From a virus (lineage: Duplodnaviria; Heunggongvirae; Uroviricota; Caudoviricetes), in the IMG/VR virus record IMGVR_UViG_2582580934_000004, positions 1 through 7,222 of that record: a stretch of 7,222 bases of DNA. One strand, written 5' to 3'. Each line of letters starts with the position of its first letter. The first letter of the stretch is position 1. The notes beneath the pieces were generated by a model. It made no database searches. It saw nothing but the letters and a program-made list of their open reading frames with translations, and had not been told where the DNA came from. This document shows, one piece after another, positions 700 through 7,222 of this stretch. Both the position numbers and the translations under genes were made by a program.

Positions 700-1089
700 A
701 TGATTGACGCTCATGACTTCACAAGATGGGTGCGCACACAGGACACCCGTCTGGCTCCCGTTCTTCAGGGATTATTTGATCTCTACATCCGTGGTCGTGA
801 CAACAGAGCACGCACCACAAAACCGGAGAATGCAGACACCCTTTATTTCACAGTAGACGACTGCTACCGCGTGGACTTCACACCACACGGGCTGGCGTTG
901 CACTGCCTGACACCACACGGCGAATCACTACTGGCGTATTACGACTCCCCGGCCTCCGTATTTGCGGCAATGCTGGCGCATCGCACTGCTGGCGGGTGTG
1001 CCTCGCTGAGTGAATACACCGCTGAATTTGACCGCCTTTCCGCCATAACCGCCTTTCCGCCCTCTTCTCGCAGGAGTGGCAGCGCGTGA
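700..1089 (+). CDS. Hypothetical protein (129 aa) immediately upstream of the replication gene
   Basis: ATG at 700 with aagag 8 nt upstream; stop at 1087-1089, 14 nt before the gpA ATG at 1103. The 3' end contains a 14-bp direct repeat (see 1031-1064). Confidence 0.45.
   Translation: MIDAHDFTRWVRTQDTRLAPVLQGLFDLYIRGRDNRARTTKPENADTLYFTVDDCYRVDFTPHGLALHCLTPHGESLLAYYDSPASVFAAMLAHRTAGGCASLSEYTAEFDRLSAITAFPPSSRRSGSA
1031..1064 (+). repeat. Direct repeat accgcctttccgcc x2 with a 17-bp period (14/17 identity between the two 17-bp units)
   Basis: Exact 14-mer at 1031-1044 and 1048-1061, separated by ata. Lies in the last codons of ORF 700-1089. Confidence 0.85.
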
Positions 1090-1471
1090 CGGGATACCAG
1101 CCATGAGTGCGTTTGCATGGAGCTGGAATGAACCACGACCAGCTATTGATCCGGCCAGATTTACGGAGCGCAGGCAGGAAACTGAAACCGACCTGCAACG
1201 CGCCATCCGTTACTACCTTGAGGCGGACAAAAGGGCACAGGAAGAACAGGAAGCGAAGGAAGAAGCCTTTTTCGCACAATCCGCCATGGGTAAAAAACTC
1301 ATGGCATCCCTTGAGGAAGCCGGACAGCGTGAAAAGCTGGCTCAGAGCATCATCAGTAAGCGCCGGGCAACAGAACAAGACCCGGTAGCCCGTGCCTTTG
1401 CCACACTGAAGGCGCTTCCCGTTTATCTGCGAGAACCTCTGAGCCGCCACCTCTCTTTCCTGCGCAAAAAA

Positions 1472-1523
1472 CAGGAAGCCGATCGCCGGAAAGGAAGCAG
1501 GAAGCCGATCGTCAGAAAGGCAA
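1472..1523 (+). repeat. Imperfect tandem duplication, 2 x 26 bp (22/26 identical)
   Basis: caggaagccgatcg is exact at 1472-1485 and 1498-1511. Deleting one 26-bp unit joins gpA frame 2 to frame 1, giving ...LRKKQEADRQKGKKSWQAERY... Confidence 0.85.
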
Positions 1524-2895
1524 AAAGAGCTGGCAGGCGGAACGCTATGCACGCGGAACCCTGCGCAAAATATTCGAACGTCTGGACCGCACCGACAGCC
1601 GCTGGCTGACACCGGGTTATCGCTCCCTTGCCGGACGCGAACGCCTGGATGATTTGCTTTACCTGCCGCAGCTCAACAAGCACCAGATACAGACGCTGGC
1701 CACCATGACGGCGGCGATGTTCAGCAGCACCTTCGAAAAACTCTGCGATGGCTTTGGCGCGACCGATGGTGAGCTGACCATGGAGGTGGCACTGAAGGCG
1801 TATCAGATGCTGGCCCGCATGGCGTTACACCTGCACGCCATGCCTCCACATTATGACGCACTGACAACAGACAAAGACCGCAAGAACGAACCGGACACGG
1901 AACTGCTGCCGGGCGCAATCCTCCGCCTGACCTGTGCGGAATGGTGGAAACGCAAACTGTGGCTGTTACGTTGCGAGTGGCGGGAAGAACAACTCCGCGC
2001 CGCCTGTCTGGTTTCCAGAAAAACATCGCCCTATCTGAGCCAGGACGCGTTAAGCGAGTTTCGCGCACAGCGCGAGAAAACACGCGATTTCCTGAAAAGT
2101 TTCATGCTGGAAAACGAAGACGGGTTCACGATTGATCTCGAGACGGTGTATTACGCGGGAGTAAGTAACCCGGTTCACCGTAAGGCAGAAATGATGGCCA
2201 CCATGAAGGGGCTGGAACTTCTGGCCGAAGCCCGTGGCGACAGAGCGGTGTTTCTGACTGTCACCTGCCCGTCAAAATACCACGCAACAACGGAGAACGG
2301 TCATCCGAATCCCAAATGGAACGGGGCCACTATGCGCGACTCCAGCGATTACCTGGTTAACACGTTTTTTGCGGCGGTCCGCAAAAAACTGAACCGCGAC
2401 GGCCTGCGCTGGTATGGCATCCGCACGGTGGAGCCTCACCATGACGGCACCGTGCACTGGCATATGATGGTCTTTGCTCATCCGGAAGAAATCGACAGCA
2501 TCGTGGCCATCACCCGCGATATTGCCATTCAGGAAGACCGCCACGAGCTGGGCAATGATATTACTCCGCGCTTTAAGGTGGAGTATGTCGACGGCTCAAA
2601 AGGCACACCAACCAGCTACATCGCCACCTACATCGGAAAGAACCTGGACAGCCGCGCCGTGGATGGCATCGACCCAAAAACGGGCAAGCCACGCGTTGAC
2701 CACGAAACCGGAAAATCAATGGCCGAGAGCGTGGAACGCGCCATCGGCTGGGCGCGCCTTCACCGGGTCCGCCAGTTCCAGTTCTTTGGCATTCCCTCCC
2801 GTCAGGTGTGGCGTGAACTCCGCCGCCTTGCCAGCCAGATGGCACGCAACCCGGAAGGCCCGCAACGGCTGAAGGATGACGCAATGGATGCGGTA

Positions 2896-2927
2896 CTCGC
2901 TGCCGCTGATTCTTGCTGCCGCTGATG
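2896..2927 (+). repeat. Imperfect tandem duplication, 2 x 16 bp (14/16 identical)
   Basis: gctgccgctgat is exact at 2899-2910 and 2915-2926. Deleting one unit joins frame 1 to frame 2, giving ...DAVLAAADAGCFATYIEKQ... Confidence 0.85.
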
Positions 2928-3239: not shown

Positions 3240-3297
3240 ACAACAACGGGACAGAACAGCCGGAAGAAACAACAACGGGACAGAACAGCCGAAAGAA
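3240..3297 (+). repeat. Imperfect tandem duplication, 2 x 29 bp (28/29 identical)
   Basis: acaacaacgggacagaacagccg at 3240-3262 and 3269-3291. Deleting one unit joins gpA frame 2 to frame 1. Confidence 0.85.
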
Positions 3298-4090: not shown

Positions 4091-5073
4091 ATGAAAATTT
4101 GTATCGACGACGGCTCCACCAACATCAAGCTGGCATGGACTGAGAACGGCGAACGCCGCAACGCCATCAGCCCGAACAGCTTCAAGTCGGAATGGTCTGC
4201 GCCGTTCGGTGGTACGCAGCCCGCGAACTACATGCTTGATGGCGTGCGCTATGGTTTTGATCCGGTCAGCGATCGCTTTGTCCAGACGACCGACACGCAA
4301 TACCAGTACAGCGATGTGAATGTCATTGCCATTCATCACGCGCTGGTCAAATCAGGCATCACGCCACAGGAGGTGGATGTGGTTGTCACCCTGCCACTGA
4401 GCGAGTATTTCGACACAAACGCACAGCCGGACATGGCCAACATCAGCCGCAAAAAAGCGAACGTATCAACCGCAAAAAAGCGAACGTTATGCGCCCGGTG
4501 GAGTACCAGAACGGCGAAGCATTCACTATCCGTAACGTACGGGTTATGCCTGAATCCATTCCGGCTGGCTTTAAAGCACTGGCTGACATGAGTCCGTTTG
4601 AATCCCTGCTGATTGTGGATTTGGGCGGAACCACGCTGGATGTGGCAAAGGTTCAGGGGCAACTGGCAGGTATCAGCCAGGTGTTTTGCGATCCACACGT
4701 AGGCGTTTCTCTGATGGCCAATGCCGTACTGTCGGTGATGGCCACTAACGGTATGCGCACCAGTCACCACATCGCCAATACCATTATCGAACATCGCCAT
4801 GATGAAGCCTGGCTGCGCCAGCACATCCACAATGACGCGCATTACGACAGCCTGATGGCGGTTATTCGTGAAAAGGAAGAAACACTGAAACAACGAGTGA
4901 TCCGCGCGCTGGCGGGTTTTTCGGGTTACGGGCGGGTGATGGTTGTCGGTGGCGGGGCGGAGATTGTGGCACCCGCTATCCGCGAAGCCTGCGGAGTTAA
5001 TGCGACTTTCATCGCGGACGGGGTGCCACAGTTTGCTCTGGTTAATGGGCTGTACGCAATGGACAAGGAGTAA
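4091..5073 (+). pseudogene. parM: ParM/StbA-like actin-family segregation ATPase, split by one frameshift
   Basis: Translation matches plasmid R1 ParM at recalled conserved blocks: ICIDDGSTNIKLAW, ISPNSFK, YSDVNVIAIHHAL, RKKANV, VMPESIPAG, LIVDLGGTTLD, VMVVGGGAEI, FALVNGLYAMDKE. Frame 2 (4091 to about 4464) switches to frame 1 (about 4465-5073) at a 23-bp tandem duplication. Without the duplication the product is 319 aa, about the size of R1 ParM. Confidence 0.8.
4442..4487 (+). repeat. Imperfect tandem duplication, 2 x 23 bp (22/23 identical)
   Basis: atcagccgcaaaaaagcgaacgt / atcaaccgcaaaaaagcgaacgt. Deleting one unit gives ...ANISRKKANVMRPVEYQNGEAFTIRNVRVMPESIP..., colinear with ParM. Confidence 0.9.
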
Positions 5074-5452: not shown

Positions 5453-5785
5453 ATGCAACACATTGACAGAGAAAAAGCGCAGCGACTGATTGAGCGGATG
5501 GAAGCGCTGGCGAAAGAAGAAAATGTCAACATCCAAAAAATAGCTGAATGTGGCCAGATAGTTCTTCGTCGTGAAAAAGACCTCAAACAACTGATGTCTG
5601 GCGAAACCAGCAAAACATGGACTTCAGGCGAGGAGACGATTTATTGCAGCTTCTGCAATAAATCTCAGTACGAAGTCACAAAGGTGATTGCCGGACCGTC
5701 TGTTTGCATCTGCAATGAGTGCGTGGATTTGTGCAATGAAATTATCAGGAGAGAAGTGACAGACAAAAAGGGAAAAAACGCATGA
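5453..5785 (+). CDS. Small protein (110 aa) with a C-terminal ClpX-type C4 zinc-finger (ClpX N-domain-like) and an unrelated ~60-aa N-terminal region
   Basis: ATG at 5453 with aaggggga RBS at 5441-5448. Residues [39 protein letters not shown] closely resemble the E. coli ClpX zinc-binding domain (recalled as [40 protein letters not shown]), including all four Cys. No AAA+ domain follows. Confidence 0.75.
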
Positions 5786-6120
5786 ACAGAAAACAAAAAC
5801 AAGAGTTGAAATACTTTTTACGTAAAGAAATTGCCAGGCTTGAAGATGCAGAATCACAATCATCAGAAATTCCGTTCGGAATGGATATCAACGACGCCCG
5901 TATGCTCCAGGCATACCGCATAGCTCAGGCTGCACTACAGGCAAAACCGTCAGATGGACTGGTTAGAGCAGTACGATTCTATGAACTGGTAAAGCGTGAG
6001 AATCCGCCAGCCGAAACCGGAGCATGGAAAGACGCTGTTGACTGGGTACTCAAAGAGGCTTGTCAGGTTGTAAACACTGGCATCAAAGGAGACCTAGCCC
6101 AGCCTGCATCAAAGCTATAG
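5782..6120 (+). CDS. Hypothetical protein (112 aa), translationally coupled to the ClpX-zinc-finger gene
   Basis: ATG at 5782 overlaps the upstream TGA (5783-5785) as ATGA; aaggga about 8 nt upstream; stop TAG at 6118-6120 followed by a strong terminator. No family recognised. Confidence 0.6.
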
Positions 6121-6249: not shown

Positions 6250-6310
6250 GCGTGCACAAAAAAACGCGCTTTTTCTGCGCGCAGGTGACGGGGGAACAGC
6301 CCGCGTTTCA

Positions 6311-6318
6311 GGGGGGGG
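6311..6318. repeat. Homopolymeric G8 tract adjacent to a small hairpin (gggaa-tagcg-ttccc)
   Basis: Eight consecutive G at 6311-6318 in non-coding DNA; gggaa (6316-6320) pairs with ttccc (6326-6330). Confidence 0.85.
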
Positions 6319-6362
6319 AATAGCGTTCCCTTAACGATGTCGCAGCGACACGACAGAATGGC

Positions 6363-6393
6363 CGTATTTCTCACGCTGAGCGTGAAAAATACG
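6363..6393. other. 31-bp near-perfect palindrome (14-bp arms, one mismatch, 3-bp centre)
   Basis: cgtatttctcacgc-tga-gcgtgaaaaatacg; the reverse complement of the left arm differs from the right arm at one position. Confidence 0.8.
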
Positions 6394-6561
6394 TGAGGGA
6401 TTCTGGTTTGATGGGGTGAAAGGTAAGGCCGTCAAAATCGCACTGAGGCGGCGAGAACATGCAGTCAGCGCAGTGGGATTGCGTAAGAGTCTGACCGTCG
6501 ATGATGGCAATAAGCAGGAAAGCGTCGTGAAATTATCTGACTGATACAGGAGCTGGAGAGT

Positions 6562-6586
6562 CGGGGCATAAATTTTTTATGCCCCG
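6562..6586. terminator. Inverted repeat cggggcataaa / tttatgccccg downstream of the portal gene; weak candidate terminator
   Basis: Perfect 11-bp arms with a 3-nt loop; GC-rich base and AT-rich top; no clear U-tract after it on either strand. Confidence 0.3.
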
Positions 6587-6636
6587 GCGAAGCAGCAGAC
6601 AAGCGAAGCGCGTCAGGATGTGGGCTGGGTGTCCAG

Positions 6637-6710
6637 CAGTGCATAAGGGTTAAAGCGGATCACCTCTATCTAACAGTGCGTAAGGGTTAAAGCGGATCAC
6701 CTCTTCGCCA
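6637..6710. repeat. Imperfect tandem duplication with a 37-bp period across the 3' end of the portal gene
   Basis: cagtgcataagggttaaagcggatcacctct (6637-6667) against cagtgcgtaagggttaaagcggatcacctct (6674-6704), 30/31 identical. The - strand stop codon (6650-6652) lies inside the first copy. Confidence 0.85.
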
Positions 6711-7222
6711 AGCCAGTCATTGATGTGCTTCATGGCCTCCATGACGGGCATCAGCTCGTTAATTGCGTAAACCCGCGCGGCCTTCTCCACATCACCAAAC
6801 GCACTTTTTTCACCCGGCATCGCCCCCATCAGTTGCGGCGGAACGCGGTGCGCAGCCAGTACATCATCACGGGATGCCGCCTTAACATTCATGAACTCAT
6901 CCTTTGCGGTGATCTGCTGGAACGGCAAAATTTGCACACCTTCTTTGCCCCCGTTGGGCGCATGAATGAGCACGTTTTTAAACGCACCACCACCACGTGC
7001 ACCCTGTAACGTTTCTTTCAGGGAGTCCATGCTTTCGCGGTTTACCTGCGCTGCACCGATGTAGATGATGCACCCGGCGTGGGATCCGTTGTCGTAGTAC
7101 AGTTTTCTGAACATGTCCGCCGAATGAGAAAGGCTGGCTGAGAGTAATGCGCCAAGATATTCCGGCATGCCGTAGATTTCCTGGTTAATATCCGGATTCA
7201 TCAGGTGGCACACTTTGCCAGG
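6650..7222 (-). CDS. Portal protein (P2 gpQ-like), 3' portion; the 5' end lies beyond the window
   Basis: The - strand translation (NPDINQEIYGMPEYL...YYDNGSHAG...SRDDVLAAHRVPPQLMG...FGDVEKAARV...NDWLGEEVIRF) resembles P2-family portal proteins as recalled. It is convergent with gpA, as expected for the A-cos-Q arrangement. The C-terminal codons run through the 37-bp duplication. Confidence 0.7.
   Translation of the reverse strand, partial: PGKVCHLMNPDINQEIYGMPEYLGALLSASLSHSADMFRKLYYDNGSHAGCIIYIGAAQVNRESMDSLKETLQGARGGGAFKNVLIHAPNGGKEGVQILPFQQITAKDEFMNVKAASRDDVLAAHRVPPQLMGAMPGEKSAFGDVEKAARVYAINELMPVMEAMKHINDWLGEEVIRFNPYALLDRGDPL

Follow-up and report, generated by a model that had tools for sequence, protein, structure and literature searches.

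Does the portal gene at the end of the 7,222-nucleotide stretch of viral DNA analysed here (the window) truly encode a protein ending in RGDPL, or does this tail stem from a 37-nt duplication that may not be real? The earlier note on this DNA proposed that the portal C-terminus had been rewritten by the duplication, and cautioned that the tail depends on whether the duplication is real. The question matters, and the caution was warranted.

The partial 190-a.a. portal protein scored 44.8 bits against the Pfam family Phage_portal (PF04860), above the cut-off of 39.1. At the nucleotide level, identity to P88-like phages (P88, 520873, Chuche and others) is 95-98% across the gene's 3′ portion and the spacer downstream of it; in these phages, the matching minus-strand gene is annotated as the portal protein. 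Plus-strand early genes for a replication endonuclease, ParM, a partition protein and a ClpX-type zinc-finger protein lie upstream. In the relatives, the portal gene is followed by the large terminase gene on the same strand and the capsid module is divergent; the window stops at 7222, inside the portal gene. By sequence similarity, the window carries a segment of a P88-like prophage (Xuanwuvirus, Peduoviridae, P2-family).

The elements at the 3′ end of the portal gene are as follows:

6650..7222, minus strand: portal (gpQ-like) ORF as deposited, 190 codons plus a stop, its N-terminus cut by the contig end
6668..6704, minus strand: native-position unit (copy 2), contiguous with the portal body; RM9872/P88-type allele, encoding ...(E)VIRFNPYALLD
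6631..6667, minus strand: extra unit (copy 1), nearest the native stop; CB9615-type allele of the portal's last in-frame 37 nt
6613..6615, minus strand: native portal stop TGA (...TQPTS and stop), placed by the end of the P88 CDS, the alignment and the de-duplicated translation

The two 37-nt units lie side by side at 6631-6667 and 6668-6704 in the best register and share 33 of 37 bases, and a repeat search of the window recovered the same pair as 6632-6667 and 6669-6704, spaced by 37. The chance expectation of such a repeat is ~2e-10 (binomial, over all positions and periods of 10-60), and the best match in shuffled sequence was 22/37 (n = 200 shuffles). Chance is not an explanation for the repeat. 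The earlier description of the repeat was accurate, although the coordinates given then, 6637-6710, lie a few bases off the unit boundaries, 6631-6704.

Translation of the portal minus-strand ORF ends in ...EEVIRFNPYALLDRGDPL and a stop, with the C-terminus LLDRGDPL; the stop codon, TAA at 6650-6652, lies within the first unit, just as had been proposed. When either unit was deleted in silico, the portal instead ended in ...EEVIRFNPYALLDTQPTS with the C-terminus LLDTQPTS and a TGA stop at 6613-6615, in agreement with the predicted one-copy stop at about 6614. The extra 37 nt amount to 12 codons plus one base, so the frame slips after ...ALLD and RGDPL with its stop replaces TQPTS; the present ORF reads copy 1 out of frame. 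The RGDPL tail therefore hinges on the duplication, as the earlier note had it, and is a frameshift by-product. The sequence of the junction is GGATCACCTCTATCTAACAGTGC, and its counterparts in single-copy contexts are GGGTATCTAACAG, GGGTGTCCAGCAG and CACCTCTTCGCC.

We then asked whether the RGDPL arrangement occurs in relatives. All 16 related phage records examined span 37-38 nt less than the window, and their alignment shows one unit. The portal stretch matched 1146 E. coli complete genomes, and among the matches listed all span 224 nt, not 261. A degenerate motif for the junction found no exact match in species-representative genomes, IMG/VR or a metagenome collection. The 36 natural portal tails inspected read TQPTS (27), EKTAP (5), TQLTS (2), PQPTS (1) and IQPTS (1). 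None of them is RGDPL, leaving the window alone among 37 sequences and without either family-typical C-terminus (...LLDTQPTS or ...LLDEKTAP). It had been suggested that the present arrangement would be native if homologous portals ended in ...LLDRGDPL; as none of the 36 do, that reading finds no support. The comparison indicates that the present arrangement is not native, and the real phage portal gene almost certainly ends in ...LLDTQPTS.

The same comparison bears on the idea that RGDPL is the new five-residue C-terminus of a functional, selected portal variant. The ORF would keep its length, an inferred 348 codons, with the last five residues alone differing, which speaks for such a variant. 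However, the RGDPL protein (UniRef UPI00046F6AFD, E. coli) is a singleton among 3683 cluster members as well as among the inspected tails, and an essential replication gene on the same contig is broken three times by like lesions, so that we regard selection for this tail as scarcely credible. A search of solved structures for a role of the portal tail returned the distant RcGTA portal alone, in an alignment that stops short of the tail. Separately, one sublineage (L004, L008 and L010, comprising phages 569R5 and PhiR44_2 and a prophage of E. coli RM8988) has a different portal tail, ...FNSYALLDEKTAP, and a 525-nt gene inserted immediately downstream of the portal. Its mosaic boundary falls inside the portal's last ~40 nt, the stretch that is duplicated in the window.

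The two copies proved to be two natural alleles. All four differences between them (C/T, G/A, C/T and T/C on the coding strand, copy 1/copy 2) are synonymous in the portal frame. As a single copy, copy 1 is matched at 100% in many E. coli genomes and exactly in 11 IMG/VR contigs (CB9615-type), and copy 2 is likewise matched at 100% in many E. coli genomes (RM9872/P88-type). Furthermore, the RM9872 prophage (L007) is exact over 6316-6630 and 6668-6982, which flank the extra unit with 315 nt apiece, indicating that the extra unit is a foreign-allele copy set in a continuous backbone rather than a copy that drifted in place.

These alleles weigh heavily against an in-place slipped-strand tandem duplication of the portal 3′ end with later divergence by drift, even though the head-to-tail arrangement with no spacer is what such an event would leave. 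Copies made in this way should be identical or differ by random drift only. Those in the portal are neither, since the four differences exactly match the allele of many other genomes and are all synonymous in the portal frame, a pattern not expected of drift out of frame or past a stop codon. An old event would also be inconsistent with the absence of the duplication from every relative. Slippage followed by drift is thus very improbable.

Three other readings were rejected. A repeat of the DGR (diversity-generating retroelement) type does not fit, as the differences are not adenine-specific and no reverse-transcriptase family appears among the contig's called genes. An integrase att-site or target-site duplication does not fit either: the unit excludes the gene's true end and breaks the frame, no element lies between or beside the copies, and five repeats of the same kind fall within other genes. 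A simple join of two phage lineages at the portal repeat is contradicted by RM9872, which is exact on both sides, and the segments between the junctions are not 100% matches to single lineages.

The portal duplication is not alone. Alignment of the window to the nearest complete relatives revealed seven insertions (17, 17, 26, 16, 29, 23 and 37 nt) plus a single base, and no private deletions in the window. One of the 17-nt insertions, at 297-313, was rejected as a duplication; it is a natural indel allele, with 297-416 exact in four loci. This stretch differs from NCTC9022 and CB9615 by the 17-nt indel and a cluster of substitutions, and the four loci with the exact sequence are IMG/VR L019, L023, L030 and L060. 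The other six are private imperfect tandem duplications with units of 17, 26, 16, 29, 23 and 37 nt, starting at 1029, 1469, 2895, 3240, 4442 and 6631, and none of the lengths is a multiple of 3. The five outside the portal gene are:

1029..1062, plus strand: tandem duplication, period 17, 2 differences; 3′ end of a 129-a.a. hypothetical gene
1469..1520, plus strand: tandem duplication, period 26; replication endonuclease; copy 1 P88/RM9872-type, copy 2 PhiR44_2-type allele
2895..2926, plus strand: tandem duplication, period 16; replication endonuclease; two natural alleles, ACTC... and TCTT...
3240..3297, plus strand: tandem duplication, period 29, 1 difference; replication endonuclease; both alleles natural
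4442..4487, plus strand: tandem duplication, period 23, 1 difference; parM; both alleles natural

Four of these five duplications, like that in the portal gene, pair two different natural alleles, giving five of six sites at which each allele is found as a single copy elsewhere. The junction 20-mers were found in none of 76 related loci. Across the whole window, only ~6 single-base variants are absent from the panel of related loci; with so few private variants, the contig looks like a patchwork of natural alleles rather than a noisy read.

The duplications break the 129-a.a. hypothetical gene and leave the replication endonuclease gene in four ORFs and parM in two. In silico removal of the extra units yields full-length ORFs of 947 codons for rep and 320 codons for parM, both colinear with the relatives and free of internal stops. 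Synonymous differences from the relatives then outnumber non-synonymous ones in rep (47:12), parM (18:3) and the portal gene (3:0). On these patterns, the genes underlying the duplications look functional. The frameshifted ParM and rep fragments are each found on one contig only.

What, then, produced the six duplications? A look-up of the ParM fragment truncated by the frameshift gave an exact match that identified the window as contig AYJZ01000063.1 in its full length of 7,222 bp, from a draft assembly of E. coli (GCA_000511465.1). The contig breaks off within the portal gene, as a repeat-bounded contig would be expected to do. P88-like prophages match in up to 4-8 places per E. coli genome, and several per genome are common. 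When a genome carries several related prophages, draft assemblers collapse them and break contigs. The 37-nt duplication is probably an assembly artefact in a collapsed contig from at least two co-resident P88-like prophages. The strain would carry at least two such prophages that differ by a few percent, and the assembler may have collapsed them into one mosaic contig. At six joins, one prophage's version would have been placed directly before the other's with the overlap left unmerged, by the assembler itself or by a scaffolding or gap-closing step. Against this reading, a pure de Bruijn-graph assembler, to our knowledge, creates no such junction unless the reads contain it, so that the artefact needs a scaffolding, gap-closing or overlap-merging step. 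A search for a co-resident prophage pair from a complete genome that reproduces the contig yielded none, the best pair explaining 7005 of 7057 positions; an attempt to piece the contig together from two prophages of a single complete O145 genome was not decisive. The fine-scale mosaic of the contig could also reflect natural phage recombination. Literature searches on AYJZ and GCA_000511465 returned nothing.

The main competing account takes the duplications as real lesions in a decaying prophage, arising by template switching or illegitimate exchange between co-resident P88-like prophages. Short stretches of the other prophage's allele would have been inserted beside the resident one, inactivating rep, parM and possibly the portal gene. 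This account gains from the natural alleles carried by the extra units, which imply that a second P88-like template was present, from the frequent co-residence of prophages of this type, and from the fact that a de Bruijn-graph assembler, had one been used, would have required the junction k-mers among the reads. On the other hand, six independent events would have had to occur within 7 kb, every one a duplication, without private deletions, nonsense mutations or relaxed selection in the underlying ORFs. Read from the sequence, the portal junction shows no more than 1 nt of microhomology; when prophages undergo gene conversion, sequence is normally replaced and not duplicated; and among the matches listed, nothing similar occurs in more than 1000 related prophages. 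We therefore consider real lesions unlikely. Still more doubtful is the specific form in which the six micro-duplications record a burst of template switching that set the other allele head-to-tail without microhomology, which would be an undescribed mutational signature of prophage decay where a strain harbours several related prophages.

Two natural alleles, five more lesions and a contig that is a whole short draft piece, three points that the earlier note had not noticed, together make a biological rewriting of the portal C-terminus, as that note had it, unlikely.

Several features of the surrounding sequence were also recorded. The spacer between the convergent early-region and portal genes contains one strong hairpin:

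6562..6586, unstranded: inverted repeat, hairpin with an 11-bp stem and a 3-nt loop between the convergent early-region and portal genes; fold -26.4 kcal/mol, z = -4.3

This hairpin is kept in P88, 520873 and Chuche and fails a simple terminator consensus; a terminator and promoter consensus scan of 6300-6800 found nothing. A second strong inverted repeat in the spacer, at 6363-6393, has arms of 15 nt separated by 1 nt. The cos site of P2-type phages is located immediately beyond the portal gene. The two inverted repeats could have a role in termination or packaging. At 6305-6318, the window has a run of eight Gs (CAGGGGGGGGAATAG) where P88, NCTC9022 and CB9615 have CA-GGGGGTAAATAG; the eight-G variant is shared with the prophage of E. 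coli O145 RM9872, indicating a natural allele rather than a homopolymer error. In addition, ~140 nt (5945-6092) within a 112-a.a. hypothetical gene (5782-6120) show 88-93% identity to unrelated phages, including podoviruses such as vB_EcoP_PAS61, the lambdoid mEp460 and the ~79-kb phages 18-1-2 and 19-1-2, a distribution suggesting that different phage families share a small module.

The main value of the portal duplication is one of caution. The RGDPL-tailed protein and the split replication-endonuclease and ParM fragments probably arose as artefacts of annotating a single draft contig, and they should be taken neither for phage gene variants nor for pseudogenes. Were the junctions real, they would represent an unusual way for related prophages in one cell to damage each other, of moderate interest to specialists in phages and genome evolution.

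Finally, we compared the locus with known systems. With the P88-like phages, in which the gpQ homologue is the counterpart of the portal gene, the window shares the same early-gene neighbourhood; their portal tail is TQPTS, whereas the window's is RGDPL, owing to the extra 37 nt, and is common to no relative. Slipped-strand or microhomology-mediated duplications resemble the window in the short head-to-tail unit and the frameshift, but in the window the copies differ by natural synonymous alleles and the microhomology at the portal junction does not exceed 1 nt. A further parallel is the false heterotype duplication, a documented class of assembly error in which two diverged alleles end up next to each other in the assembly (Ko et al. 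2022, PMC9516828). The documented cases are kilobase-scale, come from diploid vertebrates and are often separated by gaps (PMC9516828), whereas the units in the window are 16-37 nt long with no gaps, and the part of the 'haplotypes' would be played by prophages sharing one haploid bacterium. As in that class, both copies in the window are allele-specific (at five of six sites), the duplications are absent from independent assemblies of the relatives, gene structures that are probably false are created, and several duplications lie together in the window.
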